Positions 43,837 through 64,000 of a stretch of DNA of 64,000 bases are shown here, piece after piece. Origin of the DNA: Verrucomicrobiia bacterium (lineage in GTDB: Bacteria; Omnitrophota; Omnitrophia; Omnitrophales; Aquincolibacteriaceae). A program made the translations under genes and the position numbers. The stretch's first letter is position 1, and each line of letters begins with the position of its first letter. The notes under the pieces are model-generated. The model was not told the origin of the DNA and did not search any database. It saw only the letters and a program-made list of their open reading frames with translations. The stretch covers positions 6,914 to 70,913 of the forward strand of contig DATJFP010000092.1 of the NCBI GenBank assembly GCA_035495615.1. The letters run 5' to 3'.

Positions 43837-44439
43837 ATGAAGAAAGCCATTCTTATTTCCTTATGCGTGCTGGCCGCCGGCCTTCCCCTTACCGGCTGCC
43901 GCAAAAAACCTCTCCAAGAGCAGCCTCCTGCCAAGCAGGAAGCCGCGACTCTCAAGCTATTAAAGAAGGCCGGCCTCGAGGTCTATCCGAAGAGCGAGAT
44001 CCTGGATCAGTCGCTGAAGAATCAGGAAACCGAAAAGCTCTATGGAGCGAACCCGGAGGCGAAAAGCGAAGTGACCGTAGCGCGGGTGTGGGCGGCGGTG
44101 GATGCGCCGGTCGAAGAAGTGCGGGCCTACTACGCGAAAACTCATCCCTATGTCCTGCGCGACGAGCATAAGACCGACGGCACCGAATTCATCCAGCTCT
44201 CTTCCGTGGAAAAGATCGCCTCAGCCATCACCGAAGGTGTGACCCCGATTACGCTGGTGGACATCCGCAAGAACAAACTGACCGCCGACGAACGCACGGG
44301 CTACGAAGGCGAGCTGAAGGCCTTGCAGGAAAAAAAGGGCCCGGATCTCGTCGACGAAAACAGGATCAAGGAACTGCAGCGGCTCCTTGCGGAAAAAACC
44401 ATCGTCAAGCTGAGCCTCCGCGCGGAAAAACCCTCCTAA
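43837..44439 (+). CDS. hypothetical lipoprotein (only plus-strand gene in window)
   Basis: Signal peptide and lipobox LISLCVLAAGLPLTGC. 200 aa. Followed by a strong terminator. Confidence 0.55.
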   Translation: MKKAILISLCVLAAGLPLTGCRKKPLQEQPPAKQEAATLKLLKKAGLEVYPKSEILDQSLKNQETEKLYGANPEAKSEVTVARVWAAVDAPVEEVRAYYAKTHPYVLRDEHKTDGTEFIQLSSVEKIASAITEGVTPITLVDIRKNKLTADERTGYEGELKALQEKKGPDLVDENRIKELQRLLAEKTIVKLSLRAEKPS

Positions 44440-47500: not shown

Positions 47501-50500
47501 GTAGGACTTGGTCTTGTTTTCGTAAGCGGCCATCACCGAAGGCTTGGCCGCGTCCGCGCCGATCTTGCTGTTGAAGGCCTGGCGGCTCGTTTCGATCTGC
47601 TGGCCGACGCGGATGACTTCGTCCGGCGTGAGATTCAGGAAGCCCGTGATGTCGGAGATCGTCTTGGCCGTGCGCGCGATGTACATGACCTGCGCCGGCG
47701 TCAGATAGCGTTCCAGGTAGCGCATGGCCGCGCGCATCTGCTTCATCTGGCGCAGTTTGTTCAGCTTGCGCTCTTCCAGGTTCTGCGACTTGAGGAAGTT
47801 CTGGTAAACGTCCGAACGTTCGACCTTCGCGTCGAGCGCCGACACCTTCGGGTCGACACCCTGCGTCACTTCGCCTCTGAGGCGCGCCATGTAAGCGTTC
47901 AGCTGGTTCTGCAGTTCTTGTTCCTGCTGCTCGTCCAGCTTGTCAGTCTTCAATTCCTTGAGCTTCATTTCACGGTACAGCTGCTGCCACTGGAACCGCT
48001 TGACGTTCTTTTCTTCATCGCGGTACTGGTCCATGGCGTACGAGAAGATCGGGCCGTTCTCCATGCTGTCTTCGTCGTAGGAGCGGCCGCTCTGCTGGAT
48101 CTTGCGGATCAGGATCTGCACCGTGTACGCCTCGTTTTCGTCGAGCAGCGTGCGGTCGGCGGTGCTGTCCTTGCGCTTGCCGGTCGGATCGGTCGGATCG
48201 ACGTAAGCCTGCTCTTTGCGCTGCGTGCCAAGGCCCAGGTCGATCATGTGGGTGGATTCGTGTTCGAGCGCTTCTTCTTCGTAACCCGCGATCGAGAAGA
48301 TGTAACCGGACTTGCGGAACACATGTTCCTGGCCCTTGAACTTATCGGGACCGGAGACGACAGGAATGTTCTTGGTTTCGTCCGGACGCGTCGCGTTGGC
48401 CTGGCCGGTCGCCGACAGGAAGCCTTTTTCGCGCAGCCACTGCAGCGCGGCCTTGGGCACGGAGATTGAAATGACCGGGACGTCCGGCAGGCCGAAGATG
48501 TCCTGCCACACTTTCAGGAGCGGGTCGCTGCTCGCCATGCGGACGCTGACCTGGACGGGCCTGTCGGTGCCGGCCGCCTTTTTCAGGCCTTCCTTGTCGA
48601 TCTTGGGCTTGTCGTAATAGTTGTTGAGGCCTTCGAGCACGTAATCCAGGGCCTTCTCGTATTCCTCGGCCGAGCTTCCGTCTTTCATCATGTTGCTGAT
48701 CTCGAGCAGGTCAGCCTGCGATTCGCGCATGCGCTTGATCTTTTCGTAATAACGCACGACGTCCGCCTGGTCCAGCGGGCCTTTTTCGAACCGCTCCTGC
48801 AGGGTTTCCGCATTGATGCCTTTCACATAATCGTCTTTCAGGTCGTCGTCTTTTTCGCTGACGCGGTACTTCACTTTCAGCACCGAGGCCGCGGCCTGCG
48901 CCGACGCATCCGCCTGGACGGCCAGCCGCAGCAGGTTGAGGCCGACGAACTTGTAGCTGTCGTCGATCAGTTTGTCTTCCATCAGGAAGCTCTCGGCCAT
49001 GTCGAGGAGGACAAGGCTGAGACCCTTTTTCAGCGCCTTCACGTCATCCGCGGCTTCCTGCTTCGCCGTGGCATCCGCCGCCGCGGCGCCGCGCGCTTCG
49101 GCCTGCTTGATCGCGGCTTCGTAAATCGACTTGAGCTGGACCATCGCGAGCGGCTTCGTCAGATCGATGTTCAGGGCCGCAAAATCCAGGCCCGTGCGGT
49201 TCAGCAGCGCGCCGCCGTCCTGGCCCGCAAGCGCTTCCAGCACCTGGGTCGTGGTCAGCGCGCCGGTATCGATGCGGGTGCCGCGGGCCGCGAGGAGCGG
49301 CACGATAAGCGCCAGCTTGTCCCCTTGCTCGGCGAGAGCTCCGGTAAGGCCGATCTTCGGCGCGACGAGCGACAGGAACAGCATGCGTTCGAACAGCGTG
49401 AGGTCGTAACGGTCCATGATGCCCGTGACTTCCAGCAGGTTGTCCGGACGGCTCACGCCTTCGGCGAGAGCGTTCATCTTGTAGAGGATCTTGGCGATCT
49501 CTTCCAGCTTCAGCTTGAGGATCGGCCAATGCCCGCGGATAGCGACGGTGAAAATGTCCCAGACGCCGCGCGGCACGAAGGCGAGATCAGGATCGAAGCG
49601 CACGAGGAGATCCGGAATGCTGCCCAGGTCCGGCGCCGTGGTCTTGTCGTCCAGCTGCTGGTGCTTGGCGGCCAGGAACGGCTGGTCGATCGCAAAGAGA
49701 TTGCCCGGCCGCAGGTTGTCTTCGAAATACGCCGCTTCGATCTCGCGGCGGCTCTTGCCCGTGCGCTTCTGCGTGTTTTCGACGTAGGCATTCAGGCGGA
49801 AGTGGTCGTAACGGCGCGCCGTGCGGATCTGGTTGTCCAGGGCCTGGCCCGTCTTGATCTGCAGGTCGTCCTGGTCGAGCAGCTTGCCGAGGCGCGCGTA
49901 CGCGTCCTGCTGCAGCTTCATCAGGACTTCGAGATTATTCTCGTCAAATCCTTTTTCTTTGTTCAGACCCAGGCTCTTGGCCGCATCCAGCGCGCGTTTC
50001 TTGTCGCGGTTCACGTCCTTCTCGGAGACGTACGGCGACGGCTTGCCGAGCGCCTTCGCCTGTTCGATTTCCCGCTGGATCTTGGGATCTTTGTAGTCCA
50101 CGGCGCTCTTCTGCAGCGCCACCAGCGTGTCGAGCGCCTGCTTCGCGCGGACCGCGTTGAGAAGGTCGACGAGCGCCTCTTCGACCGCTTCGACGCGGGC
50201 GTGGTCGCCGGCGGCCGTGGCCGCGTCATGTTCGGCGCGCAGCTTCATCATTTTGAGGTCGAACGCCGTTTCCTGGCTCGGTTCCTGGAAGCCTTCGGCG
50301 CCGGCCTTGTAGAGGTCGGACCAGGCCTGGTCGATCTCGTTACGCGTGAGCGGCGAGAACAGGCGTCCGAAGAAGCTGGTCTTGCGGTCCAGCGCCTCGG
50401 CCTTGTTCAGGAGGTACTCGCGCACTTCTTTTTCCGTGCGCTGGCTCTGTTCGACGAGCGTCTGCACGGCCTTTTCCTGGCGGACCAGGTAGTACAGCGC

Positions 50501-53500
50501 GTCGAGCGACAGGTCGACGAGCGCGTCCATGCCATAGCCCGCGACGGCGCGGCGCAGGTCGTCCCGGAAGTTCAGCGATTCGTCCTGGGCCAGGAGGTCG
50601 ACCACCGACAGGAACAGGTTGTGCTGATACGCATCGACCTGGCCGGGCGTGGCGCCCCGCAGGAACGCGGGCTTGAGTTCGTGAATGTCGGAGAGCTTGA
50701 AGCCCTTCAGCGTGGCGCGCAGGCTTTCGAGGGCTTTCTGCTGCTGGCGTTCGTACTTGGCCTTGGCCTTCTCGAGGCTCGCCTTTTCGCGGTCGATTTC
50801 TTCGCCGGTCGCCGTGGCAAAACCGCGCTCGGACTTGCGCAGCGCGATCTTCTGCAGCTCGATCTCCGCGGACCGCAGGCTGTCGCGCTGCTGGGACAGG
50901 CGCGTGTAGAGCTGACGGACAGGCTTGGGCATGTCGGAACGGGCGTTCTTCAGGGCGATCTGCGCGATGCGGCCGGCCGGGCTCAGTTCGCCGTAGCCGT
51001 CGCCGTAGATGTCGAAGAGGAGCTTCGAGTCCACTTTGCTTTCGATTTCTTCGCCGGTCAGACCGACGTTCTCGAGATGGCGGACCACGTTGAGCAGCTG
51101 GTTCAGGCCGCGGCGGTCGTAGCTGGTGAAGTCAACGAAGCCGCGGTCGGAAAGTTCCAGCGCGATGCGGTAAAGTTCGCGGTCATCTCCGTCGTCCCAG
51201 TGGAAGCCGAGCTTGCGCAGGCTGTTCTTCTGATAGTCGGACAGGTTCTGCAGGTCTTCGATGGTCCGCGTGAACGCCTGGCCTTTACGGGTCAATTCGT
51301 AATGACTCTGCTCGACCGTCTCGCCGTTCCTGACGTCGGTAACCTCGCGTTTCTGCTCGCTGACAAGGCCGCGGCTCTCCAGGTTTTCAGCCACGGCTTT
51401 CGCGGCTTCGGCCTGGTTGTTGCCCAGATGCGCGATCGCGCGGTTGGCGTCGGCCAGGTTCGCGGACTTCACTTTGATTTCCTGATGACGTTCCACGGCT
51501 TCGGCATTGATGACCATCTTCTCCAGGTTCTTGGCCAGGCGGACCGTATCCACCAGGTTGTTGGTCGTGGACAGGCTTTCCTTTTCGACGCGCAGGCCCG
51601 GCGCGACGCTTTCTCCGATATTCAGGTCGCGGAGGATCTGGATGCCGCGGTCGCTGAACCGGACCGAGCACGAGGAGCACGATTCGCTGAGCTCGACCAG
51701 CAGGCCGCGCAGTTCGGTCTTCGACACGTCGGCAAGCAGGGCTTTCAGCGCCGGGTTCTGCTCGGCGAGGAGCGCCAGCGTGCGGAACGTGCTTTCCGAA
51801 CGCGCCACATTGTCTTCGTGACTGGCCAGGACGTCGCGCTGCTGGCCCTTGATGATCTGCTCGAGAAGCGCCTTCAGGGCCGATTCCGCGGTGGCCGGCG
51901 AATTAAGGGCGGACTCGGAATTCGCGAACAGGTTCTTGATCTGGCCTTCGAGCGCGACTTTGTTCGCGTCCACCGTCGAGCCGAACAGCAGCTCCTTCTT
52001 GGCCGCGTCGATTTCCGCGAGGAAGCCCTTGATCATGTCCATCGGATCATCGCTGTTCTTGGCGAAGTCGTGGATGTCGGTTTCCATGGCGTTCAGGTCC
52101 ATCGCCTCATTATTCAGCGCCAGCATGTTGCGGTAGCCGGCGAGGTAGGCCTCGCGCATGGAGTTGAGTTCGCCCAGGACGCGCGACTGCATCTGCTCGC
52201 CGCCGGTCAGGTATCCCTTTTCCTGGAAGTCGAAGTTCACGTCGTCGTCCTGCGCCTCGCGGTTCTGCCAGTCGGTATAGAAATCGTTGATCGCCTGGTG
52301 GACCTTGGCTTTGGCCTTGTAATCCTCGCTGAACTGGAAGCCGTGCTCTTCCATGCGCTGCAGTTCGGCCAGCGCGCTCTTGAGCTCGACGCGCCATGCG
52401 GTCACCATCCGGCGGGCCTCGTCACCCCGGGCCGTATTGTCGCGGCCGGCCAGGCTCGAGTAGTTCTGGATGTTCTTGGAGAGCTCCTTGATGTCCTCGA
52501 CCAGCTGCTTCTGCCGGTCTTCGAACGCCTTCCGCTCCTGTTTTTCCATCTGGGCGAGCTCGCCCTTCAAGCCGTTCAGCATGGACTGCGCGATTTCGTG
52601 GCCGCGGTCTTTCAGCGTTTCGCCGACCTTGTGCAGCAGCGAGCCGGACACGTCGTTCTTGATGTAGTTCCACGCCGACACCATCATGAACCATTCGATC
52701 TCGGTCAAAGTGTCCTTCATTTCGAGGCGCTCGATCAGGTTCAGCGTCAGGCGGAATTCGTTTTCTTTCATTTCTTCCTGGTACTTTTTCAGCGTGATCT
52801 TGCCGCGGTTCAGATCCTTCAGGAGGCCGGCCTCGAACTGGGCCAGGACTTCCTGCATGGCGCCCTTGAAGCTGTTGTTGCGCTCGTGGATGTCCATCTC
52901 GATCGAATTGCGGATGGCCTGGAAATCCTTGGTCGGGAGCAGCACCTGGCGATGGCCGATTTCACCCTTGCCGCGGACGATGCGGCCGAGGATCTGCATC
53001 ATTTCGCGGAAGCCGCGGCTCGCGGACTTGATGGTCAGCGACCACTTGCCCTGGAAGTCGACGCCCTGCTGCGTGTCCTGGATGTTGTTGGTGACGACGA
53101 GCGACGGCGTGCCCAGCGACGCGGCCACGCGCGCGACCGTCGGGATGAGTTCGCTGAAGGCCACGGCGTCGACCGCGAACATGTAGCTCTTGTTTTTGTC
53201 GGTCAGCTTCGGAAGCGCTTCGAGCTCCTGCTGGTCCTTCTGCGTGGCCTCGAGGATCATGTCCGTCTTCTTCTTGAGGTTGTCCTGAATTTCCTGGTAA
53301 CGCTGGCTGCTCCACACGTTGTCGCCCAGCTGCCGTTCGAGCTGCGTGGCCTCTTTCTGGAGGCGTTCGAACAGGCCGATGACCGACTTGACGTTCTTGC
53401 CCACATCGACTTCGATATACGTGCGGCCGCCGTTGTCCTTTTCCGCCTTGAAGCTTTCGAGGACCTTCGAATACTCCGTGTGGTCTTCCACGAACATCAG

Positions 53501-56500
53501 ATGGGCCCAGCCCTTCTCGAGGTATGCCCGGCCGATTTCCAGCATCTTGGCCACGCCGTTTTCTTCGTCGACGAACATGAGGTTCTTGGCGTTGGCCCTG
53601 CCGATCTCGTCGTTCTTCTTCGTGGCTTCCGCGGCTTCGGATTTCGCGATGAGCTGCTTCACGTCATTGGCCGTGATGTCTTCGGCATAGGTCCAGGCCG
53701 CGCTGATGACATTGCCTTCGTTGTCGCGCTCCTCGCCCTGCTGCATGCGCGAACGGTCGCGCGCCACGGTGTGCACGCCCATCAGGATGGACGACAGCGG
53801 GCTGTAAGTCGCGGTGCTGCCCGCGCGGCGGATGTGGCGGCGCAGGAGCAGCTCGCCTTCCGCGGTCTGGGTCACGGTGATGTGGTTGTTGAGGTTCAGG
53901 ATGCCCTGGTTCTTCCCGTTGTTTTCCTGCGGGATGTCGCTCATGCGGATAAGGTCGCGGCCGTAGCGGCCTTCGACGACCAGGTATTCCGCGCCATTGA
54001 TCTGCACGCGCTCCAGCGTCACGTTCGACGCCGTGTTGGTGATTTCCGCGTGCGCGCCCACCTGGACTTCCGTACGGCCGGTGATGTCGGCGATCTCGAT
54101 CCGCGTGACGTTCTTATTCGCCTTGTCGATGATGCGCTTGATCAAGCTCATCTGCGTGGAGGTCGCCTGCGTCAGCGAATTCTCGAGCTCGTGCTCCTTG
54201 ACCATCTTGTCGTTGACTTCGGCCAGCTCGCCGCGAAGGACGTTGATTTCGCGGATGCGCGCCTGGATGTCGTCGCGCTGCGCGGCATCCGCGGTGGTGA
54301 GCAGCTGCTTCTCGAGGTTCTCTTTCTCGGTTTCGATTTCCGCGAGGTTGCGGCCCTGGATCTTCTCCAGACGAGCTTCCTTTTCCTTGATCTTGTCCGC
54401 GTTCGCAGCCGCGTCGGTCTTCAGTTTTTCCAGGTCGCCCTTGAGCGCCGTAACTTCATCCGTAAGCTTCGCGGCCTTCTTCGCCAGCACCTCGTTGCTG
54501 ATGAACGACAGGACGAGCTTCGTCACGCGGCCGCTGAAATTCGTGGACTGGATCTTACCGTTCTCTTTCGGGTGCAGCTCGCCGTATTCGTTCGTTTCGA
54601 AGTGCTTGGCATACTGCATGCCGAGCGCGCGGACCGCTTCCTTGACTTCTGAGGCCCGGAATTCGCCGGACACGATGCGCTCTTTCACGCGCTCCTTCAG
54701 GGCCTTGGACATGTACACTTCCGCGTCCTTGTCGGTGCCTTCGACGATCAGCTGCGCGTTTCCGAATTTGTCCGCGATGTCGAGCAGCCGCTTGGCCTCG
54801 CGGTTGTCTTTGGCGACCAGAAGCGCGTTCTTGTTGGCAATGCCGTTTTCGTCGTAGGTCACGCCGAGCATCGTATACAGCTCGCGGATCTTGTTGATGT
54901 ATTCCTCGGCGTTTACGGTCGCGTTCTTCGTGTCGGACAGGATGTACTGCGTGATTTCCGCCTGGAACTTATCGATTTCTTCGATGCCCCACGAATCCAG
55001 TTTCGCCATCAGGAGCTCGAGGATCGCGGGCTGGTCCTGGAGGGTAATCAGCGCGAAACCGACCTGGTCCGGGGCGATGACCTTGATGGCCTCGTCGTTT
55101 CTGAGCGCCGCTTCCAGCTTTTCGAAATCGCGCGCGACCAGGAGCTTCTGGATGTCGATCAGTTCGCCCGCGCCGAAGAGCCGGACCAGTTCCTGGTTCG
55201 GGACGCTGACGCGGAGGTCGTTCGGGCCTTTGATGCCGGCTTTGCCGTTGGCGAAGTCCGCGCCCTTGGTTTCGGTTTCCGCCAGGATCACGCTGCCCGA
55301 GACTTCGCTGTTCTGCCGCGCGAGCGCGATTTCCGTGGACGCCTTGACCATGGCCACCATGTTCTTACCGACGGCGGTCTTACCATTGCCGATTTCTTCC
55401 ATCAGGAAGTCGCCGATGATGCCCTTCTGCACGGCGCGCAGGTCGAAGCGGTAAGCGCTGTCCGCGCGGACCTTATCCGCCGCGGCCTGGGCTTCTCTGG
55501 CGGCCTGATCCTTGTCGTGCGTCCGGCCTTCGACTTCTTCGTACGTCTTGCGGTAAGTCTCGCGCATGAATTCGATCAGCAGCCGGTGTCCGAAAATCTT
55601 GTTGTGATAAACCAGCAGGGATTCGCGGTCGAGCTTGTAACCGTCACCCAGGCGCGCCTTGACGCCTTCGACAAAGGCCTTGTACACCGCGGCGCCGTCG
55701 ATCGTGCCGTTCTTGAAGTAGTCCTGCAGCAGCCGGCCCGCCTGGCCCGCGGTCAATTCCATTTCGGCCTGGAGGTCGAAGATGCCGTACTTGATGTCCT
55801 GGGCGACGTTCGGATTGGCGCCCGTGAATTCCGCAATGGCTTTGTCCGCATACGCGTGCAGCTGCGCGCGCTGATCGGCGTCCAGGCTGTTGTTGGCGAG
55901 CGCCCTCGAAAGCACGGTCAGCGTGGCTGTATCGTTGCGCAGGCTCGACGGCATGCTGAAGGCGACATCGACGATGGCCTGCAGCGCGGCGAGATCCTTC
56001 GTTTCATAGGCTTCCTTGCGCAGGGCCGAGAGCTCGCCCTTTTCGAGCTGCTCGATCTGGTCTTCGAGCTGCTCTTCTTTCATCGAGAGCGACGGATCGC
56101 GCAGGCGCATCGGCATGCCGCGCACGACCGCGAGCTGGCTGCGGAGATCTTCCATCTTCACGAGCGCTTCCTGGAAACGGAAGGCCAGGCTGCCCGCGGC
56201 GGGCGCCGTCTTGAGCGGGCTTGCGGTCGGGGCCTGAGCGCTCTGGAATTCTTCGAGCGCCGCGGCGCGCGCAGGTTCCGGGGCCTTGGCCGCTTTCTTC
56301 GCTTCGGCCGCTTCTTTGGCGGTCGGCGTGGCCTTGGCGCTTTCGGCCGGGGCCTTGGCGGCTTCCCGGGCGGCCGCGGCTTCAGTGCGCGTGGCTTCCA
56401 GGCGGCCGAGGCGGGCCTGTTCCGAGATCTCGAAGCGCATCAGCATGGCTTCGCCGGCGAGCTCGGCGCGGCTCAGCTCGATCTGGCGGAGCGCCATGAA

Positions 56501-59500
56501 CAGGTCCTGCGCCGTGGCGTTGGCCAGCGTGATTTCCGTGCCGTCGCGCGCCTTCAGGTTTTCGAGCGCCGCCATCAGGCCGTGCGCGATCATCATGCGC
56601 TGCGCCCGGACCCGCGCGGAAACGCCGGCCGGCACCAGGATGTTGAAGAGCGGATGGCCGCGGAAGCTGTTGAAACCGAACGGCATGAATCCGAACATTC
56701 CGAGCGCGGCCGTCTGGTACGGCACGTCGCCCTGCACGTAATTGCCGAGGAATGCGAAGGCGTCGTTGAACGGTACGCCGTGGAAGGTGCCGAGCGCGGC
56801 CAGGGCCGCGACGATGCCGATGAAGCCGAGGCTGACGACAGCCGCGGCGCGCGCGAACTTCGCCAGCGGCGAGCGCGAGGCGCGGACCGGCGTTCCGAGA
56901 ACGTCGGCCAGGTCTTCGACCATGTCTTTATACTGCGTTTCGTTCAGTGAGCGGCCGTCCGCCGACAGGTTCAGGCGCTGTTCGACGTCGGCGACCGCAT
57001 CCAGGATCCGGTCCTTGGTCTGGCGTGTCGTTTCGAGCTGGCTGGCCAGGACTTTCAGAGTCGCCTGGTGCTGCGCGATCTGGCTGAGGAGCGACGAGCT
57101 CAGGAAGCGCGCGTTGACCGTGCCGAGAAGCGCCTGGATCTGATCGACGTACACCTGCGCGTTCGCGACGTCCATGCGGTTCAGCGCGGCGATGAGCGCC
57201 GACATCAGGAGATCGATATTGAGGACCATGAGCGAGTGCGTCTGTTCCTGCGCCCACGGATTGGCGGCATTCGTCTGAAGGGCCTGGATGCGCTGGCCGA
57301 GGTCCTGCAGGTCCTGGCGGAACTTCGCCAGCCGCGCGATGCCTTCCTGCGTATTCATCTTGTTCGCTTCGATCGCTTTTTTCAGGCCCGCGTATTCGGT
57401 CCTGTAACCGTCGAGCTTGGTGAGGACATCAAATTCTTCGGTGGCGCGCGTCTGGGCATCGGCCTGCGTGGCGTAGGTTTCAACCGTGATGCCGTTGATC
57501 GTGACCGCGTAGATCGAGCCGCCGTTGGAGAGCTGACGTTCTTCGACCACGACCGCGTCGCGGCCGAGCGTCTGTTTGGAAACTTCTTTGGAAGAGACCG
57601 TCACGGGGGCGGCCGGCGCCGAGGTGCCTGACAGCGCGGGCGCGGCCTGGGCTTCGAGCTGGGCCTGGCGCGCGGCGGCGAGATCGGTCTGGGCCTGGTG
57701 CAGTTCCTGTTGCGCATCCGCATAGGCTTTTTCCGCGGCGATGACTTCAGGCGATTTCACTTTCGCTTCGGCCTGCGCTTCCGTGCGCGCCTGGACCTGC
57801 GCCACGGCATTTTCCGCGACGCTCGGGGCTTTGGCGCCCTGCTCCACGGCCATGACCAGGCGGAGCGAGCGGCCCACGAGATACGCCGCGAAGATCTGGA
57901 TGCCGAGAACAGCCGGCAATCCGATCGGCGCCAGCACGGTGAGGCCGAGAACCGGCGCGGCCACCATGAGGACGGCGGAGGTGAATCCGCCGAGGACGCC
58001 TGCGGCCCACGGGCCGATGACGGCCGACACCATCCGGCCGATGAACGACGTAGGCTCGGCGCTCATCTTGCCGAAGAGCAGCGTGCCGATGCGTTCCATC
58101 CAGGCGCCGAAGACTTGGCCCGTGGTCGGGGCCGAAGACGCGGCGACGCGTTCCGCTTCGCGGATCGTCTGGGGCGCGGCGGCTTCTTCGGCCTGCGGTC
58201 CGGCGCGCGTCTGCGCGTTCGCACGGATCGCGGCGATGACTTTCACGGCCCAGATGAAGAGCGAGACGCCGCCCAGGATCGCGGCCTGGATCGCGGGCGC
58301 GAACGGGAGAATCGCCGCAACCACGCCGAAGCCGGTGGCGGCCAGAGCAATCGCGGTGCCCCAGATGATCGTATTCGTCCAGAGGTTGAAGCGCTTGGTC
58401 TGCGCGTTATTCTTGTTTTCCAGGTCGATGTTGGCGCCGAAGCGGTTGAGAAGCGCCGCGAGCGGAGCCTTCACCCAGGAAACCGAGGTCTTGAGAATGA
58501 AGGCCGAAAGGACCGTGATGACGCCCGGGATGCCGAAGACCGCCAGGAGGCCGCTCACGAACAGGTAACCCAGGCCGCCGACCAGGCCGACCGTGAGCAG
58601 CTGCGCCGTGATGTCCTTGAGAACGCCGAAGAAGCCTTTTTCTTCGGCTGCCTGTTTATTGAGGCCGAGGGTGGACTCGGAGAAGATCAGCGCGAACAGG
58701 CCCGGCAGCACGAGATTGATAAGGGCTCCGATCACCGGCGCCTTCTCGACCACCTTGAAGACGAACCATTCCTGGACCGCGTGCATGCGCTTGGCAAAGC
58801 GGCCGAAGGAGGTCGCCTCGCCTTTCTGCGCGAGGATCTGTTCCTGGATCACTTCGGCCACGGCCTCGAGGACTTCCAGGATGTTGAAGCCGTCGGCGTT
58901 CATCACCTGCTCGGCCACCTTCTGGAGCAGCTCGAGCAGCTTGGTCCGGTCGGCGCCGATCTGCGCGGCCAGGAAGTCGATCACCGCGCGGACGACGGCC
59001 AGCACGCGCAGCTTCGTCTGCTTGGCCTGGATGTCCATGGCCTTCTGGTAGTCCGCGCTCGAAATGCCGAGCAGGCCGTGCGTGTATTTCAGGATGAAGG
59101 ACGCGATGCGGCCCACGATCGAGGACAGGAACTGCACCAGAATCGAGCGCGAGTTCGTGGCCGGCGTCATGAGGTAATTCAGGAGGCGCAGGATCGCGTT
59201 CTGCAGCCAGCCGAGCAGGCCGTTTTCGGACTTGAGCAGCTCGCTCTTTTCCTGCGCCATGTCTTCGGTCGCCTGGTTGACCGCGTCCATGACGTCCTGC
59301 GCCGAAGCGTTCTGGTCGATCGTGATGCCGAGTTCCTGGGCCACGGCACGGGTCGCGCCGTCCGCGACTTCCTGCGCCGTGACGTCCGGCTGGCTGGCGA
59401 TGAGTTCCGAAATCGTCTGGAGGATCTTGCCCGCCGCCTTCTTCTCGTCTTTCAGGTTTTCAGAATCCTGGAGCGCCACGTTCTTGAACGCTTCCGTGAC

Positions 59501-62500
59501 CTTGTCGGTGCGCTGCTCGCTCGCAGCCTGTTCCGCCGCCGTCTTCGGCAGCTCGGTCCGGGCCGGCGCGTTCAGCTTGCCGCCGTTCAGCACGGTCTCG
59601 ATGGCGTCTTCCACGCGGCCCAGCGAATTTTCCAGCGCGCGGACTTCCGGCGTGGTCTCGGCGTACTGGGCGATCATGCCTTTCAGGCCGGCTTCATCCA
59701 CGTGTCCGGCGTCGATGAGGTCGGTCAGCCGCGCCGCTTCCTGCACCGAGATCTGGCCGCCGCTGCGGGCTTCTTTGACAAGGTCTCTGAGGAACGCGAT
59801 GCTGCGCAGCGATTCCTTTTGCTTCTCGCTCATCGGGGCCTGCTCGACGGCCTTGGCGCGGGCTTCCTCGATCTTCTTCTGGGCTTCTTCAAAGGACTTC
59901 ATCGCGCCCTGAGCCGTGGCATTGGCGGCCGCGAGCCTCTTCTCGGCTTCGGCCAGCCGCAGCTGCGCCTGAGTCTGGGCTTCGGCCAGGCGCGCCTTTT
60001 CCTTCTCGCCGTAACCGGCTTCGGCCTTGTCCGCATCGGAAATCGGAGCGGCGGCTTCTTCCAGCGCTTTTTCCGCGGCATAGCGGCTCTCGAGCGCGGC
60101 CTGGAGGTCGGCCTCGGCCTTTTGCACCTGGATCAGCGCGGCGGCCTTGGCATCCGCGTCGCCGATCGCGAGTTTTTCCTGGGCCTGACGCAGGGCCTCG
60201 CGCGCCGTTTCTTCCGCGGTCTTCGCTTCCTGCACGCGGTTGACCAGGCCTGCGCGGGCTTCGACTTTTTCCGCTTCCTTGGCCTTGGCTTCCGCGTCGG
60301 CCTTGGCTTTTTCGGCCTGGGCCCGCAGCGTGTAGGCTTCCTGCGCGGCCGCGAGCATCTGATAGTACGGCGTATTCTGGACTTCGAAATCAAGGCCCGC
60401 GAGCTCGAGCTTCGACAGCGCCTTCAGGAGCGCCACGCGGCGTCCTTCGGTCATCTGGCCGAAGCGGACCAGGTCGCCCAGCATCGCCGCCGCCTCGTCT
60501 TCGGTGTTCAGGTTGTGATGGGACAATTCGTGGCTGAGCGCGAAATCGAGGATCGCCATGATTTCGCGCGCGCTGAGCTTGGTCGTGCGCAGCAGGTCCG
60601 CATTGAAAGAGAACGTCGCCGTCGTGTTGTCGGCGCTCAGCGCGACGCCCGCGACCTGCGTGGTTTCTTTGAGGAGCCGGATCTGGACCTTCTGGAGGTC
60701 CGGCTGCATGCGCTGGGCCGCGAGAAGTTCCGTGGCGATCAGCCGCACGAGGCGTTCCTGCAGGACGCGGTAAGTGTCGTTGTCGATGCCCGCAAACAGC
60801 ACGCCGAAGACTCCGGCCAGTTCGGCGCGGAGGATTTCCCAGAGTTCCGCCTGGCTCTTCGCGGCTGAGGCAAGCTGCACGTCGATCGAGATCAGGCCGT
60901 TTTCGATCGTCACCAGCTGCGCGTTCTCGACCGAGGTCATGGAGTCGCCCAGCAGGTTCTGGCCTTCGAAGGTGCGCGCGCCCTTCGCGGCAGCCTTCAT
61001 GCTGATCGGGAACGCGGCCATGCCGTGATGACCGCCGGTTCCGTCCACGGCCTGGCGGAAGAAGTCCGCGATCTTGGCGATAACGGCTTTCTGACCGTCA
61101 TCCATTTCCCCGGTGAAGAAGATATCCTTCAAGCTGTCTTCCACGGCTTTCTGCGCGGCCGCCTGCTCTTCCTGCCTCAGTTTCTGCTGCTCGGCGGCGC
61201 TTTTCTTCATGTCATCGATCATCTGACGGATGCCGACCACGTTCTGCGTGAACGGAGCCGTGTCGGAGATCATGTCCCCGATCATGCCCTGGGCTTCCGC
61301 GCGGGCCTCAGCCTCGAGTTCGTCCGTGATTTCCGCGGCTTCGCTCATCTGCTGCAGGAGCACCTGGGCGAGTTCGGCTTCGAGCGCGGCGATGGTTTCA
61401 GCGCGCTGCTGCTGATGCGCTTTCGCCTGCTCGGCCGTGATCGTCACCGTGACGCGGCCGGACTTGATCTCGACCTGGCCGTTACGGATCGCTTCCTGCA
61501 GGGTCTCGTTCGACGCTTCCGTCAGGAGGCGCGCGGCCAGTTCTTTCTTGAAGGTTTCGATGCGGGCCGCGGTTTCCGCCTGGCGGGCCCGGGCTTCGAG
61601 GATCCGGTTCTCGGCTTCCAGGACCGCGCCGCGGTATTCCGCCTTGTGCGCTTCGTCCATGGCCGCGTAGCGCTGGAGATTGGCTGCGACGGCACGGACC
61701 GCGTCTTCCACGTTCGCGCCGGCGGCCGCGCGGTCGAGCGAAAGGATGAAGATGTCGATTTCAGCCTGCGTCATTTCCGAGAGATCCTGCAGCAGCTCGA
61801 CGCGTTCGTTGACGTCCATGCCGTGGGCTTCGGCCAGCGCGTCCACGAACCGCTGCGCCGCGGCCTTGCGGGACTCGCTCGCTTTGGCCACGACCGCCTG
61901 TCCGGCGCTCGCGACGCGTTCCTTGTTTTCCTGGGCCAGCGCCGCGGCTTTGAGTCGCGCTTCGTGCTCGGCCTTGACCTGCGCCAGCCGCTGGGCGCGC
62001 TGGTCGACGGCGGCCTGATGCGCCTGCTGGGCCTGGGCCGCGCGCGTGGCGTAAGCCGCGCTGCGCGCCGTGAGGTCCGCGACCGTGGCTTCGAGCGTCT
62101 GGATCTGCAGCGTGAACTGCGCGGCTTCGGAATTGCGGTCGGCCTGCAGCTTGCGGACCTTGTTTTCAAGATCCTCCTGTTCCTTGCTGAGCGACTGCAG
62201 GGCTTCTCCGCTCATGAAGCGCTGCATGCGTTCGAGCTTGTCGGCTTCCGTCATATTGATAAGGGCCTGAAGCTCCGCTTGCGCGGCCGCGATCTGCTTG
62301 TCCAGGTTCTCGAGCCGGGTCTGCTGAGCGGCACGCGCCTGGACAAGCTCATTCTGGGCGCTGGTCAGCGCGTTGGCAAACGTCAGGTTTTCACGCTGCG
62401 CGCGGAGCGCCGTGAGATCGCTCTGTATCTGGCGGATCTCGTCACGGTTTTCGAGGGCCGCCGCATAATCGGCCTGCAGGGTCGCAAGCTGCGATTCCAG

Positions 62501-64000
62501 GCCCGCGATCTGCTGGTCAAGCTCCTCAACGCGGTCCTCAAAACCGCTCAGTTCCGTGCCCATCAGTTCCGCCTGGTCTCTCAGGCCGCGGATCTGCTCG
62601 AGCTCCGCGAGCTCGGCCGCGAACACCGTTTCGCCGCTCTGTCCCGCTTCCGTGACAACGGCAAGGCCGCTCGCCAGTTCCGCGAGGTCGCCTTCGCTCA
62701 GGTTCATGAGCCGCTGCATGAGGTTCGCATTGGCCGCGATGGCCGCGATCCACGTGTTCAGCATGGCCTGGGCCTGGGCATCGAGGCGTCCGAAGGAGTC
62801 GAGGAACTGCACGGCCGCGCGCTGGAAGTTCTGCAGCGCCTGCAGCTTGGCCTGCGCGGCCGCGGTCGTGCCGAGGATCTGCTGGAATTGGCCGGCCAGG
62901 TGCGCCTGCAGGCCCGCTCCGAGAACCGCGAATCTTGCCGCGAGCGCGGCCAGGGCATCGAGCGCCTGCAGCTGCGCCGCGTGATCCAGCCCGCTGTCGG
63001 CCGCGGCAATCAGTTCCGCGATCTGGGCGATGACGCTCTTCATGGCATCCGGGAAGCTCTGGAACGCGGCGATGACGGACGCCTTCTTATTATTAAGCTC
63101 GGTCGCGCGGGCCTTCGCATCCAGTTCCGCCGGCGAAACATTGATGGCGGCCTGCACCGCGGCCGTATCCGTGGCCTTACCGAGGCTCGCGAGGAATTCT
63201 TCCTGGTGTTCGGCGCTCATGGCCTGGAACTCGGCGATCTTCGCGAGCACCGCGTTGACCGCCGCGACAGGGTCCGCCGCCTTAAGCGCATCCTGCAGCG
63301 CGCCCATGAAGGCATCCAGCACTCTCGCATCGAGATTCGCCAGAAGATTGAGCATGTTCACGCGCTCGGTCACGTCGATGTTGAGGTTGCGGATCGCTTC
63401 GGCCGCGCGCTGCGCCGCGTCTTTGGCCGTCGCCTTCGCGACGAGACGGCCTTCGGCTTCCGTCACGGAAGCGGTTTCTTTCGCTTTTCTTTCCTGCTCG
63501 CTCTTGGCGGCCTGGTAATCGGCCTGGCGTCCGGCAAGGCGCTGAGCGCGGGCCTGGACCGCGGCCTGCACGCTGGCGCCGGCCTGGGCCGCGGCAACGC
63601 GTCCGCTCACCTGCTCGCCGAGCGCGGTCAGGCGGCTGACTTCGAGCGTCTGGGCCGCGATTTCGCCGGTCAGGCGCGCTTCTTCGCTCGTGCGCAGCGC
63701 CTGGAGATTTGCGATCTCGGCTTCGAGCTGGCGTTCGGTGCGGCGGAATTCCATCAGGTCGACCTGGCCGCTCTGGATTTCGGCCTGCCAGGCGATCTGC
63801 TGTTCGGGCGTCAGGTCCTGGCGGCGGTGCGAGCGGAGGTCGGCTTCCGCGGCCGCGATCTGATCGGAGATGTCCTTAAGGCGCTGCGGCAATTCCTGGC
63901 GGAGCTGTTCGAGGCGGGCCTGCGCGGCCTGCAGCGCCTGGCTCTGAGACAGGGATTCACGTTCGGCGCGTTTGGAATTCAAGTCGCTGGCGATCGAGCG
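44552..64000 (-). CDS. giant uncharacterized protein, >6476 aa, partial (5' end beyond right window edge); Ala/Gln/Glu-rich helical/coiled-coil megaprotein with internal TM islands, NTPase-like and HEx[S/T]H motifs
   Basis: Uninterrupted minus-strand frame from 63982 to the stop at 44552. The frame remains open through 64000 (the listed first codon is TTG and the upstream codons are sense). Residue composition is protein-like, whereas the plus-strand ORFs inside it are antisense shadows. It ends at a strong terminator. Confidence 0.85.
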   Translation of the reverse strand, partial: RSIASDLNSKRAERESLSQSQALQAAQARLEQLRQELPQRLKDISDQIAAAEADLRSHRRQDLTPEQQIAWQAEIQSGQVDLMEFRRTERQLEAEIANLQALRTSEEARLTGEIAAQTLEVSRLTALGEQVSGRVAAAQAGASVQAAVQARAQRLAGRQADYQAAKSEQERKAKETASVTEAEGRLVAKATAKDAAQRAAEAIRNLNIDVTERVNMLNLLANLDARVLDAFMGALQDALKAADPVAAVNAVLAKIAEFQAMSAEHQEEFLASLGKATDTAAVQAAINVSPAELDAKARATELNNKKASVIAAFQSFPDAMKSVIAQIAELIAAADSGLDHAAQLQALDALAALAARFAVLGAGLQAHLAGQFQQILGTTAAAQAKLQALQNFQRAAVQFLDSFGRLDAQAQAMLNTWIAAIAANANLMQRLMNLSEGDLAELASGLAVVTEAGQSGETVFAAELAELEQIRGLRDQAELMGTELSGFEDRVEELDQQIAGLESQLATLQADYAAALENRDEIRQIQSDLTALRAQRENLTFANALTSAQNELVQARAAQQTRLENLDKQIAAAQAELQALINMTEADKLERMQRFMSGEALQSLSKEQEDLENKVRKLQADRNSEAAQFTLQIQTLEATVADLTARSAAYATRAAQAQQAHQAAVDQRAQRLAQVKAEHEARLKAAALAQENKERVASAGQAVVAKASESRKAAAQRFVDALAEAHGMDVNERVELLQDLSEMTQAEIDIFILSLDRAAAGANVEDAVRAVAANLQRYAAMDEAHKAEYRGAVLEAENRILEARARQAETAARIETFKKELAARLLTEASNETLQEAIRNGQVEIKSGRVTVTITAEQAKAHQQQRAETIAALEAELAQVLLQQMSEAAEITDELEAEARAEAQGMIGDMISDTAPFTQNVVGIRQMIDDMKKSAAEQQKLRQEEQAAAQKAVEDSLKDIFFTGEMDDGQKAVIAKIADFFRQAVDGTGGHHGMAAFPISMKAAAKGARTFEGQNLLGDSMTSVENAQLVTIENGLISIDVQLASAAKSQAELWEILRAELAGVFGVLFAGIDNDTYRVLQERLVRLIATELLAAQRMQPDLQKVQIRLLKETTQVAGVALSADNTTATFSFNADLLRTTKLSAREIMAILDFALSHELSHHNLNTEDEAAAMLGDLVRFGQMTEGRRVALLKALSKLELAGLDFEVQNTPYYQMLAAAQEAYTLRAQAEKAKADAEAKAKEAEKVEARAGLVNRVQEAKTAEETAREALRQAQEKLAIGDADAKAAALIQVQKAEADLQAALESRYAAEKALEEAAAPISDADKAEAGYGEKEKARLAEAQTQAQLRLAEAEKRLAAANATAQGAMKSFEEAQKKIEEARAKAVEQAPMSEKQKESLRSIAFLRDLVKEARSGGQISVQEAARLTDLIDAGHVDEAGLKGMIAQYAETTPEVRALENSLGRVEDAIETVLNGGKLNAPARTELPKTAAEQAASEQRTDKVTEAFKNVALQDSENLKDEKKAAGKILQTISELIASQPDVTAQEVADGATRAVAQELGITIDQNASAQDVMDAVNQATEDMAQEKSELLKSENGLLGWLQNAILRLLNYLMTPATNSRSILVQFLSSIVGRIASFILKYTHGLLGISSADYQKAMDIQAKQTKLRVLAVVRAVIDFLAAQIGADRTKLLELLQKVAEQVMNADGFNILEVLEAVAEVIQEQILAQKGEATSFGRFAKRMHAVQEWFVFKVVEKAPVIGALINLVLPGLFALIFSESTLGLNKQAAEEKGFFGVLKDITAQLLTVGLVGGLGYLFVSGLLAVFGIPGVITVLSAFILKTSVSWVKAPLAALLNRFGANIDLENKNNAQTKRFNLWTNTIIWGTAIALAATGFGVVAAILPFAPAIQAAILGGVSLFIWAVKVIAAIRANAQTRAGPQAEEAAAPQTIREAERVAASSAPTTGQVFGAWMERIGTLLFGKMSAEPTSFIGRMVSAVIGPWAAGVLGGFTSAVLMVAAPVLGLTVLAPIGLPAVLGIQIFAAYLVGRSLRLVMAVEQGAKAPSVAENAVAQVQARTEAQAEAKVKSPEVIAAEKAYADAQQELHQAQTDLAAARQAQLEAQAAPALSGTSAPAAPVTVSSKEVSKQTLGRDAVVVEERQLSNGGSIYAVTINGITVETYATQADAQTRATEEFDVLTKLDGYRTEYAGLKKAIEANKMNTQEGIARLAKFRQDLQDLGQRIQALQTNAANPWAQEQTHSLMVLNIDLLMSALIAALNRMDVANAQVYVDQIQALLGTVNARFLSSSLLSQIAQHQATLKVLASQLETTRQTKDRILDAVADVEQRLNLSADGRSLNETQYKDMVEDLADVLGTPVRASRSPLAKFARAAAVVSLGFIGIVAALAALGTFHGVPFNDAFAFLGNYVQGDVPYQTAALGMFGFMPFGFNSFRGHPLFNILVPAGVSARVRAQRMMIAHGLMAALENLKARDGTEITLANATAQDLFMALRQIELSRAELAGEAMLMRFEISEQARLGRLEATRTEAAAAREAAKAPAESAKATPTAKEAAEAKKAAKAPEPARAAALEEFQSAQAPTASPLKTAPAAGSLAFRFQEALVKMEDLRSQLAVVRGMPMRLRDPSLSMKEEQLEDQIEQLEKGELSALRKEAYETKDLAALQAIVDVAFSMPSSLRNDTATLTVLSRALANNSLDADQRAQLHAYADKAIAEFTGANPNVAQDIKYGIFDLQAEMELTAGQAGRLLQDYFKNGTIDGAAVYKAFVEGVKARLGDGYKLDRESLLVYHNKIFGHRLLIEFMRETYRKTYEEVEGRTHDKDQAAREAQAAADKVRADSAYRFDLRAVQKGIIGDFLMEEIGNGKTAVGKNMVAMVKASTEIALARQNSEVSGSVILAETETKGADFANGKAGIKGPNDLRVSVPNQELVRLFGAGELIDIQKLLVARDFEKLEAALRNDEAIKVIAPDQVGFALITLQDQPAILELLMAKLDSWGIEEIDKFQAEITQYILSDTKNATVNAEEYINKIRELYTMLGVTYDENGIANKNALLVAKDNREAKRLLDIADKFGNAQLIVEGTDKDAEVYMSKALKERVKERIVSGEFRASEVKEAVRALGMQYAKHFETNEYGELHPKENGKIQSTNFSGRVTKLVLSFISNEVLAKKAAKLTDEVTALKGDLEKLKTDAAANADKIKEKEARLEKIQGRNLAEIETEKENLEKQLLTTADAAQRDDIQARIREINVLRGELAEVNDKMVKEHELENSLTQATSTQMSLIKRIIDKANKNVTRIEIADITGRTEVQVGAHAEITNTASNVTLERVQINGAEYLVVEGRYGRDLIRMSDIPQENNGKNQGILNLNNHITVTQTAEGELLLRRHIRRAGSTATYSPLSSILMGVHTVARDRSRMQQGEERDNEGNVISAAWTYAEDITANDVKQLIAKSEAAEATKKNDEIGRANAKNLMFVDEENGVAKMLEIGRAYLEKGWAHLMFVEDHTEYSKVLESFKAEKDNGGRTYIEVDVGKNVKSVIGLFERLQKEATQLERQLGDNVWSSQRYQEIQDNLKKKTDMILEATQKDQQELEALPKLTDKNKSYMFAVDAVAFSELIPTVARVAASLGTPSLVVTNNIQDTQQGVDFQGKWSLTIKSASRGFREMMQILGRIVRGKGEIGHRQVLLPTKDFQAIRNSIEMDIHERNNSFKGAMQEVLAQFEAGLLKDLNRGKITLKKYQEEMKENEFRLTLNLIERLEMKDTLTEIEWFMMVSAWNYIKNDVSGSLLHKVGETLKDRGHEIAQSMLNGLKGELAQMEKQERKAFEDRQKQLVEDIKELSKNIQNYSSLAGRDNTARGDEARRMVTAWRVELKSALAELQRMEEHGFQFSEDYKAKAKVHQAINDFYTDWQNREAQDDDVNFDFQEKGYLTGGEQMQSRVLGELNSMREAYLAGYRNMLALNNEAMDLNAMETDIHDFAKNSDDPMDMIKGFLAEIDAAKKELLFGSTVDANKVALEGQIKNLFANSESALNSPATAESALKALLEQIIKGQQRDVLASHEDNVARSESTFRTLALLAEQNPALKALLADVSKTELRGLLVELSESCSSCSVRFSDRGIQILRDLNIGESVAPGLRVEKESLSTTNNLVDTVRLAKNLEKMVINAEAVERHQEIKVKSANLADANRAIAHLGNNQAEAAKAVAENLESRGLVSEQKREVTDVRNGETVEQSHYELTRKGQAFTRTIEDLQNLSDYQKNSLRKLGFHWDDGDDRELYRIALELSDRGFVDFTSYDRRGLNQLLNVVRHLENVGLTGEEIESKVDSKLLFDIYGDGYGELSPAGRIAQIALKNARSDMPKPVRQLYTRLSQQRDSLRSAEIELQKIALRKSERGFATATGEEIDREKASLEKAKAKYERQQQKALESLRATLKGFKLSDIHELKPAFLRGATPGQVDAYQHNLFLSVVDLLAQDESLNFRDDLRRAVAGYGMDALVDLSLDALYYLVRQEKAVQTLVEQSQRTEKEVREYLLNKAEALDRKTSFFGRLFSPLTRNEIDQAWSDLYKAGAEGFQEPSQETAFDLKMMKLRAEHDAATAAGDHARVEAVEEALVDLLNAVRAKQALDTLVALQKSAVDYKDPKIQREIEQAKALGKPSPYVSEKDVNRDKKRALDAAKSLGLNKEKGFDENNLEVLMKLQQDAYARLGKLLDQDDLQIKTGQALDNQIRTARRYDHFRLNAYVENTQKRTGKSRREIEAAYFEDNLRPGNLFAIDQPFLAAKHQQLDDKTTAPDLGSIPDLLVRFDPDLAFVPRGVWDIFTVAIRGHWPILKLKLEEIAKILYKMNALAEGVSRPDNLLEVTGIMDRYDLTLFERMLFLSLVAPKIGLTGALAEQGDKLALIVPLLAARGTRIDTGALTTTQVLEALAGQDGGALLNRTGLDFAALNIDLTKPLAMVQLKSIYEAAIKQAEARGAAAADATAKQEAADDVKALKKGLSLVLLDMAESFLMEDKLIDDSYKFVGLNLLRLAVQADASAQAAASVLKVKYRVSEKDDDLKDDYVKGINAETLQERFEKGPLDQADVVRYYEKIKRMRESQADLLEISNMMKDGSSAEEYEKALDYVLEGLNNYYDKPKIDKEGLKKAAGTDRPVQVSVRMASSDPLLKVWQDIFGLPDVPVISISVPKAALQWLREKGFLSATGQANATRPDETKNIPVVSGPDKFKGQEHVFRKSGYIFSIAGYEEEALEHESTHMIDLGLGTQRKEQAYVDPTDPTGKRKDSTADRTLLDENEAYTVQILIRKIQQSGRSYDEDSMENGPIFSYAMDQYRDEEKNVKRFQWQQLYREMKLKELKTDKLDEQQEQELQNQLNAYMARLRGEVTQGVDPKVSALDAKVERSDVYQNFLKSQNLEERKLNKLRQMKQMRAAMRYLERYLTPAQVMYIARTAKTISDITGFLNLTPDEVIRVGQQIETSRQAFNSKIGADAAKPSVMAAYENKTKSYAEKLAADADYDADGTELKALAKELQDYAPNDSVDEVAFKNRTMRKVFDKIIDVALQYDGRKAGAGIPPTPPTQDELDARLQRALGLIAQFLRSDDTELGILAMAALWEAGSVNPRVHAYNVKFLGMEGTVSLAEVLNDSLKLAKQLKILNRPEEIDQEMQQLSEMARTMDPSQMQQLSERYMELHQEKAEAEAAAAALDRDDVLAQASATRALHRDLGANGRYVVELSAKPTRDELEMMKKMPYEFAISAQIDPSTGRERFILTTGLKHNQVEVYAKNQLGGFYHIHPRSARGTYDVLPSSVMGDTLRDYDGIYQLAEGAYGYAGTGLGETRYQLLPIGDKRLDDEATYPQDQIYDGDNVKETREKYNGLARQGQAFQFITKVGSRHVIIEFKPKSWMDERMAKADPVSLRELSEFMPKVDFSNSRADLVNGLRWTIDEIQSRKDQNRSAKELLGALESLDQLLASLDASAPERADVNALIARVMALLVPIMYNRIADKSQQMPAIEEVKFMKGLVDRILNDGIAIQAGADQFFSGIEELPGQLKTWLDNLAGLEGDTLVQALKKIRGELRETAPAAPKSELREAPFEGVLAGQDLGLTPEQTAELENVLAAAFESPEEVLSMLRGTNPDNIHMFFVQRPEDTLLAQDNRRLGYARHMEDGSTKIVVTPERFVDTSLDRTIRAQHLRIFLNHEKTHALLHAKIEALAANPQLRASLDTLGYNSHAFDVLHELAAYSTTLGDIEGILNDPKTSAAARDYFQGRGENIELLIRMATQHTGAELKEALAKEDGLLTVTDWVMNVQGAMGGVHPAQAMMISMPALETEMFARRHQVVIAGVQFDARWAQLAAYYGTQTVRFATNVDQLGTMVNLNAEIAAEGNQAIMVQGAESDMYQAVNADYAGKLAVGLAVVNPAAEAKDRDLAIRKLIETALVLSILGLKEIPPYVFDAAKAPNGNRGMLVAEAVAASLTDSLLEEMQVKSSA

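Follow-up and report, generated by a model that had tools for sequence, protein, structure and literature searches.

What is a compact cluster of strongly hydrophobic segments doing in the interior of a giant, mostly helical bacterial protein, and does it give that protein an unusual topology? The question is raised by a stretch of 64,000 nucleotides (the window; positions 6,914 to 70,913 of contig DATJFP010000092.1, assembly GCA_035495615.1, labelled Verrucomicrobiia bacterium and placed by GTDB in the Omnitrophota), whose minus strand carries a giant open reading frame (ORF) with an island of such segments and, farther along the protein, a second hydrophobic patch. Our favoured explanation, to which we give about an even chance (a probability of roughly 0.5), is that the island serves an Omnitrophota-type giant protein as a membrane anchor of the hairpin type, and that both arms of the protein would most probably be cytoplasmic. 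The readings that compete with this one differ from it, and from each other, in the parity of the membrane spans, in the nature of the missing N-terminus and in the cellular location of the protein.

Hydrophobic segments in a giant gene

Whether or not the segments enter a membrane, they are strongly hydrophobic and they are clustered. In a TopPred-like scan on the Goldman-Engelman-Steitz (GES) scale, seven peaks were strong (1.5 or more) and three were weaker. The seven observed segments all lie inside about 650 residues, compared with a mean of 0.6 segments per whole-protein shuffle. A preliminary description of this DNA had counted six to eight hydrophobic segments, and that count is correct and far beyond what shuffling yields by chance; the peptides that it quoted all lie in one minus-strand frame, within one uninterrupted ORF. 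Kyte-Doolittle means over 19 residues peak at 2.1-2.5 in the segments, and their summed values on the Hessa biological scale range from -1.0 to +1.4 kcal/mol. The second patch, which had been noted as well, proved to be real: residues 2382-2446, which begin 340 residues past the island, have a Hessa sum of -1.01 and GES peaks of 2.12 and 1.61.

The first segment of the island, TM1, has the length of a single transmembrane (TM) span (Table 1). The three stretches that follow it are each about twice as long, hold at most one charged residue, have a centre rich in Pro and Gly (GIPG, LPFAP and APIGLP, in that order), and are each divided by the TopPred-like scan into two adjacent peaks, with GES values of 1.19 and 2.09 for stretch 2, 1.99 and 1.56 for stretch 3, and 2.0 and 0.85 for stretch 4. 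Stretch 2, with a Hessa sum of -0.28, is ambiguous because its first half scores so low, and it could be read either as one long span or as a tight hairpin that turns at SG or at GIPG. The stretches are no more alike mutually than their shuffled versions are (z at most 1.2), and this comparison gave no sign of an origin by duplication.

Proteins encoded in the same window served as controls. Membrane proteins (PilC, the PgsA-PgpA fusion, the histidine kinase and the pilin) score in the same range as the segments. No Kyte-Doolittle peak appears in RecN, MiaB, CinA, RNase G, PilM or the secretin, and PilB and the transaldolase-phosphoglucose isomerase fusion (Tal-PGI) each show a single weak peak, a false one, on one scale or more. 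The candidate spans have helical hydrophobic moments of 0.06-0.21 and are therefore uniformly hydrophobic rather than amphipathic. On each hydropathy measure computed, the segments behave as TM helices do.

There are two ways in which the segments might nevertheless lie outside a membrane: they could be helices buried in the core of a large soluble helical domain, or they could be the translation artefact of non-coding or mis-assembled DNA. Such a reading can point to a single-sequence AlphaFold2 model of the island, which consists of continuous long helices at very low confidence, and to the tendency of Ala-rich helical proteins to give moderate peaks, as happens elsewhere in the giant protein at residues 346 and 2255, although nothing there is comparable to the island. 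It is opposed by the low moments and by the scarcity of charge, with no more than one charged residue in any of the stretches of 41-49 residues, by scores that equal those of true TM proteins of the window where soluble controls show none or a single weak peak, and by the native codon usage and independent gene call described next, and we consider it barely credible.

The giant ORF has no start codon inside the window; its N-terminus lies beyond position 64000, and its in-window length of 19.4 kb is a lower bound. Residues are numbered accordingly from the window edge, with residue i as the codon ending at window position 64000-3(i-1). The same gene is found on an independent Logan contig (SRR9009773), located by exact-match look-up of the adjacent response regulator, where it is called as 7,575 amino acids (aa; 22.7 kb) and still reaches the contig end, which makes the giant protein at least 7,575 aa long. 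The G+C content at third codon positions (GC3) of the giant ORF is 0.84, and its relative synonymous codon usage correlates with that of 23 neighbouring genes at r = 0.96. Because the codon usage is native and the gene is called in an independent assembly, the giant ORF is a genuine native gene. A separate gene or a frame artefact was also considered as the source of the hydrophobic segments and was ruled out, as the ORF is continuous, its codon usage is native and a second assembly calls it independently. On the opposite strand two long open frames run across the giant gene; in both, G+C at first codon positions exceeds GC3 and the codon-usage correlation is weaker, the pattern of shadow ORFs. 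They are non-coding and could mislead gene callers.

Table 1. Features of the giant protein and its neighbourhood, with residue numbers counted from the window edge and positions given in the window (K/R, lysine or arginine; SF2, superfamily 2)
Feature	Residues	Window position	Strand	Description
Giant ORF		44552..64000	minus	6,482 codons in the window, without a stop, open at the window edge
N-terminal Ala/Gln/Glu-rich helical region		61631..64000	minus	tandem repeat of about 520 aa, residues 1-270 against 523-790
HExxH motif, first	1157	60518-60532	minus
Amphipathic helices N-terminal of the island	1595-1682	58955..59218	minus	hydrophobic moment 0.32-0.47
Whole island	1754-2043	57872-58741	minus	290 residues; one predicted 21-aa span and three stretches of 41-49 aa
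TM1	1754-1774	58679-58741	minus	APVIGALINLVLPGLFALIFS; predicted single span, GES 1.79, K/R-rich flank before it
Hydrophobic stretch 2	1797-1837	58490-58612	minus	41 aa, one Lys at the end
Hydrophobic stretch 3	1877-1925	58226-58372	minus	49 aa; putative helix-LPFAP-helix, Trp near both ends
Hydrophobic stretch 4	1999-2043	57872-58006	minus	45 aa, no charged residue; putative helix-APIGLP-helix
Second patch, first segment	2382-2407	56780-56857	minus	probable hairpin with the next segment
Second patch, second segment	2430-2446	56663-56713	minus
Candidate degenerate SF2/SecA-like ATPase	2871-3679	52964..55390	minus	motif series; lead only
HExxH motif, second	5247	48248-48262	minus
C-terminal region of about 720-760 residues		44690..46846	minus	only part with a detectable homologue (L001)
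HExxH motif, third	6192		minus	in the C-terminal region
Open frame opposite the giant gene		49325-54652	plus	1,775 aa
Open frame opposite the giant gene		57698-60868	plus	1,056 aa
Small ORF between giant gene and response regulator		43837-44439	plus	200 aa; lipoprotein-type signal (MKKAILISLCVLAAGLPLTGC)
Tal-PGI fusion		38765-41728	minus	987 aa
CDP-alcohol phosphatidyltransferase (PgsA-like) and PgpA fusion		33716-34723	minus	335 aa
Type IV pilus/type II secretion-like cluster		20034-31147	minus	MshEN protein, two PilB, PilC, pilin, PilM, PilO, secretin

Orientation of the two arms

By the positive-inside rule, loops rich in lysine and arginine (K/R) lie on the cytoplasmic side of a membrane. 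Five K/R fall in the 20 residues before TM1 and three in the 20 residues after residue 2043; between these flanks, the loop 1775-1796 carries three K/R against four D/E, the loop 1838-1876 carries five or six K/R and the loop 1926-1998 carries seven. At the second patch the linking loop of 22 aa (2408-2429) is aromatic and acidic and has no K/R, and the outer flanks are Arg-rich, with six K/R in the 42 residues before and six in the 44 after. The K/R difference comes to 18 for a model with an even number of spans against 14 for a seven-span alternative, so that the charges give the even-span model a real but modest preference.

In the hairpin anchor that we favour, TM1 would exit to the far side of the membrane and stretch 2 would return, stretches 3 and 4 would be helix/Pro-turn/helix hairpins that dip through the bilayer and back, and residues 2382-2446 would form an additional hairpin after the two island hairpins. 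The island would then be predicted to hold five to seven spans and the second patch two. Both arms would be on the same side because each hairpin brings the chain back and because every K/R-rich loop or flank is found on a single side: the N-terminal helical repeat arm (at least 2,800 aa) would lie on the cytoplasmic face, and so would the C-terminal arm of about 4,000 aa with its P-loop and HExxH motifs, with far-side exposure limited to two loops of about 22 residues and a few tight turns. The cytoplasmic location of the C-terminal arm would also follow if the P-loop motif GNGKT is functional, as it would need cytoplasmic ATP. Just before the island lie the amphipathic helices of residues 1595-1682 (mean hydrophobicity 0.39-0.41, with a single weak GES peak of 0.73), which may sit at the membrane interface. 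Through such a module the giant protein would be tethered to the cell membrane on its inner face, and the module would be neither a receptor nor a channel.

The ambiguity of stretch 2 admits a different arrangement, in which TM1 and three hairpins add up to seven spans and the two arms come to lie on opposite sides, the Ala/Gln/Glu-rich repeat arm extracellular and the enzyme-like C-terminal arm cytoplasmic, or the reverse. The N-terminal arm might then be a surface fibre or 'coat', perhaps exported by means of a signal peptide beyond the window. The hairpin length of stretch 2 and its two TopPred-like peaks agree with an odd number of spans, as do the exclusion of Cys and the repeat architecture of the N-terminal arm, and Nielsen and Lui found that 39% of catalogued giant proteins combine a signal peptide with TM helices (bioRxiv 10.64898/2026.06.07.730766). 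On the other hand, the five K/R ahead of TM1 argue for a cytoplasmic N-terminal flank, the K/R difference is somewhat better with an even number of spans, and stretch 2 peaks only weakly in its first half (GES 1.19), so that we regard arms on opposite sides as doubtful.

Several observations weigh against a hairpin anchor with two cytoplasmic arms. A near-absence of Cys is more typical of exported than of cytoplasmic proteins, and Cys is nearly excluded here: the giant ORF has two in 6,482 residues, both within SESCSSCS in the bin of residues 4001-4250, against 0.86% in 28 neighbouring genes, and a syntenic homologue fragment from another Omnitrophota genome (L001:2-4603, described below) has none in 1,534 residues. 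This scarcity fits better with an exported or extracellular protein and is the main observation that sits ill with an all-cytoplasmic model. The parity of the spans is uncertain as well, as residues 1797-1837 may form one span or two and residues 2027-2047 reach a GES value of only 0.85. With the N-terminus off the window, a signal peptide or upstream TM islands may exist. The AlphaFold2 model of the island, with a predicted local distance difference test score (pLDDT) of 44, is too poor to support an anchor, and the best match to it in a Foldseek search of the PDB has an E value of only 4.4; the island region is also without a homologue for a conservation comparison in the collections searched. 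Finally, published hypotheses for Omnitrophota giant proteins favour extracellular roles (bioRxiv 10.1101/2023.11.21.568195; PMC10066038).

Flanking regions and possible translocation activity

The arms themselves had been described as very long coiled coils. They are helical and poor in Pro and Gly, but heptad periodicity is patchy and covers only about 21% of residues (5.7 ± 2.3% in shuffles), and the C-terminal 3,700 or so residues look mixed and globular. The two copies of the N-terminal repeat are 37% identical (E 1e-16), a relationship that self-BLAST of the full sequence, which detected no repeats, had missed and that emerged only in a targeted comparison. The ORF extends at least 1,093 residues past the window, and further copies of the repeat of about 520 aa may lie upstream.

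Past the island, the protein contains the series GNGKT (residue 2871), GIEEID (3005), LMFVED (3501), VVTNNIQDTQQGVDF (3635) and QILGRIVRGKG (3669), which resembles motifs I, II, IV, V and VI of SF2/SecA proteins in canonical order, with very large inserts between them. By itself, Q..GR..RG would be expected in 0.6% of shuffled versions of the protein. If this series is real, the arrangement would echo the TM region next to a SecA-like domain described by West-Roberts et al., who propose that adjacent TM regions anchor such domains (bioRxiv 10.1101/2023.11.21.568195), and the island could be the anchor or the channel of a self-export or protein-conducting module driven by a degenerate SecA/SF2-like ATPase. 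The order of the motifs and their place, 830-1,640 residues past the island, speak for this possibility. The reading of the motifs is post hoc, however, and the region has no Pfam, NCBIfam or PDB match; the Pfam models SecA_DEAD, DEAD and Helicase_C find nothing even at E up to 1, and single-sequence AlphaFold2 gives the putative RecA2-like region a pLDDT of 37. We therefore judge a self-export module very unlikely.

The C-terminal region offers a different kind of motif. Of the three HExxH motifs in the giant protein, the one at residue 6192 is invariant between it and the L001 homologue, as is an HxHP at about residue 5785, despite an identity of about 25%; in the alignment of the two C-terminal sequences the invariant positions are H86, H88 and P89, and H493, E494 and H497. 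This conservation suggests functional metal sites, possibly the catalytic sites of unrecognised families.

Metalloprotease-like motifs in a large, Cys-poor protein with hydrophobic hairpins also bring to mind a toxin-like translocation or pore module, in which a secreted protein, its hairpins shielded by the amphipathic helices while it is soluble and its secretion aided, for example, by the adjacent pilus/type II secretion-like machinery, would insert into a membrane of its prey or host, where it would form a pore or deliver the HExxH-bearing C-terminal modules. Hairpin-length hydrophobic stretches do lie beside amphipathic helices here, Cys is almost absent, in the homologue too, one of the three HExxH motifs is conserved, a pilus cluster is close by, and similar large ORFs have been linked by proposal to pore formation and to predation or episymbiosis as a way of life (PMC10066038). 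Yet about 60% of the 290-residue island consists of uncharged hydrophobic residues, which would be hard to conceal in a soluble fold, and the downstream P-loop motif suggests a cytoplasmic location. We found no evidence of secretion, and no Pfam profile matched, whether of a toxin translocation domain or of another family; a toxin-like role seems to us a long shot.

Whether as an export channel or anchor with a SecA/SF2-like ATPase, or as a toxin-like multi-hairpin translocon that delivers HExxH/HxHP modules, the island as part of an autonomous translocation device is improbable. If this were true, the device would represent a class of membrane-insertion module that is both new and a sequence orphan, and it would provide a testable mechanism by which giant proteins of Omnitrophota act on other cells.

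The locus and other giant proteins

The TM region (residues 1580-2480) has no detectable homologue: there were no matches in a word-indexed search of 5.8 billion proteins, in an exhaustive phmmer search of 1.84 billion cluster representatives, or in GTDB genome contigs and JGI metagenome contigs, and tblastn found none in 50,697 phage records. The P-loop region had no match either, and the alignment of the two C-terminal sequences had none among proteins and metagenomes. Pfam, PHROGs and NCBIfam gave sub-threshold noise only, for the whole protein (6,482 residues), for its sub-fragments and for the L001 homologue, and a Pfam scan of residues 1580-2100 and 2101-2480 at E up to 1 likewise returned only noise. 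No adhesion, dockerin or carbohydrate-active domain was found with these three collections across the 6,482 residues, no SecA_DEAD or SecA preprotein-binding domain was matched in Pfam at E up to 1 on sub-fragments, and sequence searches of the PDB yielded noise or nothing at all.

A relative of the locus is present in the Omnitrophota metagenome-assembled genome (MAG) L001 (JAFGHI010000008.1), which has the same gene order and a response regulator 77% identical to the one next to the giant gene. At the giant-gene position L001 has a large ORF that is cut by the contig end before the TM region, and its last 760 or so residues are collinear with the giant protein at 23-28% identity (E 1e-7 and 3e-6). 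From this synteny, together with so low an identity of the giant ORFs, it follows that, in an Omnitrophota-like lineage, the locus is conserved while the giant gene that occupies it evolves fast. In this analysis the phylum placement was drawn from neighbouring genes, namely the response regulator and Tal-PGI; when 185,579 species-representative genomes were searched with the latter, the best matches came from two MAGs of Candidatus Omnitrophota, L001 at 54% identity and a second one at 53%, followed by Chloroflexota at about 42%. The fusion of transaldolase with phosphoglucose isomerase is common to MAGs of both phyla. The G+C content of 57-66% is higher than expected for Omnitrophota.

The neighbours of the giant gene in the window are chromosomal housekeeping genes on the same strand. 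Those adjoining it encode the response regulator, the histidine kinase, the Tal-PGI fusion, a LysM amidase, RecN, MiaB, the PgsA-PgpA fusion, CinA, LigT and an HhH glycosylase. This chromosomal context and the absence of phage matches ruled out a phage tape-measure protein or a polyvalent protein of a mobile element, which we had considered as an identity for the giant protein. A gene for RNase G and the type IV pilus/type II secretion system (T4P/T2SS)-like cluster lie at a greater distance downstream, and the cluster begins at the 11th gene; its two PilB-type ATPases, of 587 and 601 aa, are in tandem, and a separate upstream ORF of 160 aa consists of an MshEN domain only. Beyond these are genes for RmuC, PCMT, CCA/poly(A) polymerase, polysaccharide-export proteins, GlmS and UDP-glucose dehydrogenase. 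The small ORF of 200 aa beside the giant gene has no family match and is called on the independent Logan contig too.

Giant genes are a known feature of the phylum. Seymour et al. reported ORFs above 20 kb in many Omnitrophota, poorly conserved, with few annotated domains and with more than one predicted TM helix, among them the giant protein of Velamenicoccus archaeovorus LiM, with 39,678 aa and 42 TM helices (PMC10066038). Most giant proteins studied by West-Roberts et al. carry divergent SecA_DEAD domains, and many are encoded near T2SS-like genes (bioRxiv 10.1101/2023.11.21.568195). Nielsen and Lui, who applied DeepTMHMM to 916 Omnitrophota proteins of at least 10,000 aa, found TM helices or a signal peptide in 94%; 46% were 'TM-only' and were read as membrane-anchored cytoplasmic architectures, 137 of the 916 were Pfam-dark, and 80% of the sequence clusters were singletons (bioRxiv 10.64898/2026.06.07.730766). 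Across these surveys there is about one TM helix per 370-500 residues, and the genes usually lie near T2SS/T4P genes (bioRxiv 10.64898/2026.06.07.730766; bioRxiv 10.1101/2023.11.21.568195; PMC10066038). Because of these surveys, an internal TM module has to be seen as the rule in Omnitrophota and not as an oddity, and the preliminary description's view of the topology as unusual does not hold. Its further suggestion of a membrane-spanning hub or of a pore or anchor module fares better, in that an anchor is the most economical reading.

The giant protein described here resembles these ORFs in its Omnitrophota-like chromosome, its length above 20 kb, its internal TM helices at low density, its few or no annotatable domains, its very fast divergence and the presence of T2SS/T4P genes within 20 ORFs; the Omnitrophota giant membrane-associated proteins that it joins are a descriptive class and not a homologous family. 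It differs in that it has no detectable homology to catalogued proteins, save for the C-terminal match to the syntenic L001 ORF, and in that the SecA_DEAD, dockerin, carbohydrate-active enzyme and adhesin domains of the others were not found. Its predicted TM helices are clustered, in one island and one hairpin, instead of scattered. Its known length is below the catalogues' threshold of 10,000 aa, being a lower bound of 7,575 aa, while it exceeds that of 20 kb.

Better-known proteins offer partial parallels to the topology that we favour. In the sensor kinase KdpD, four closely spaced TM helices form a central cluster, on either side of which, N-terminal and C-terminal, lies a large cytoplasmic domain. 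KdpD shares with the giant protein an internal TM cluster whose insertion has to begin late in translation, very short trans-side loops and flanking parts that are both (here by prediction) cytoplasmic; the giant protein is not homologous to KdpD, is far larger, has stretches that look like Pro-turn hairpins, and contains no kinase domain that we could find. The bilobed hydrophobic domain of chlamydial Inc proteins and the TM hairpins of mitofusin and atlastin are stretches of 40-50 residues with a central turn, and they too have long helical or coiled-coil flanks on the same membrane face, as is predicted here. There is no sequence relationship with these proteins, whose secretion and targeting biology is different, and they have one hairpin where the giant protein would have three or four and a single span. 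Colicin, the diphtheria toxin T domain and the large clostridial toxins (TcdA/TcdB) insert hydrophobic helical hairpins into membranes, and the likeness lies in such hairpins within a very large, mostly helical, Cys-poor protein with metalloprotease-like motifs. Unlike these toxins, the giant protein has no profile match to a translocation domain, its island is much more hydrophobic, evidence of secretion is lacking, and a probable nucleotide-binding motif lies downstream of the island.

The giant protein is another Pfam-dark, sequence-orphan Omnitrophota-like giant with internal TM helices near a pilus/T2SS cluster, a kind that has already been described. Alone, the example leaves existing knowledge unchanged, as the internal TM helices of such proteins have been reported at scale. 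The function, and even the cellular location, of giant proteins in Omnitrophota and other ultra-small episymbionts nevertheless remain puzzles, and this protein is a tractable case for the mapping of topology: it is comparatively small, and it has a single compact TM island with hairpin signatures, conserved metal-type motifs near its C-terminus and a strict avoidance of Cys.

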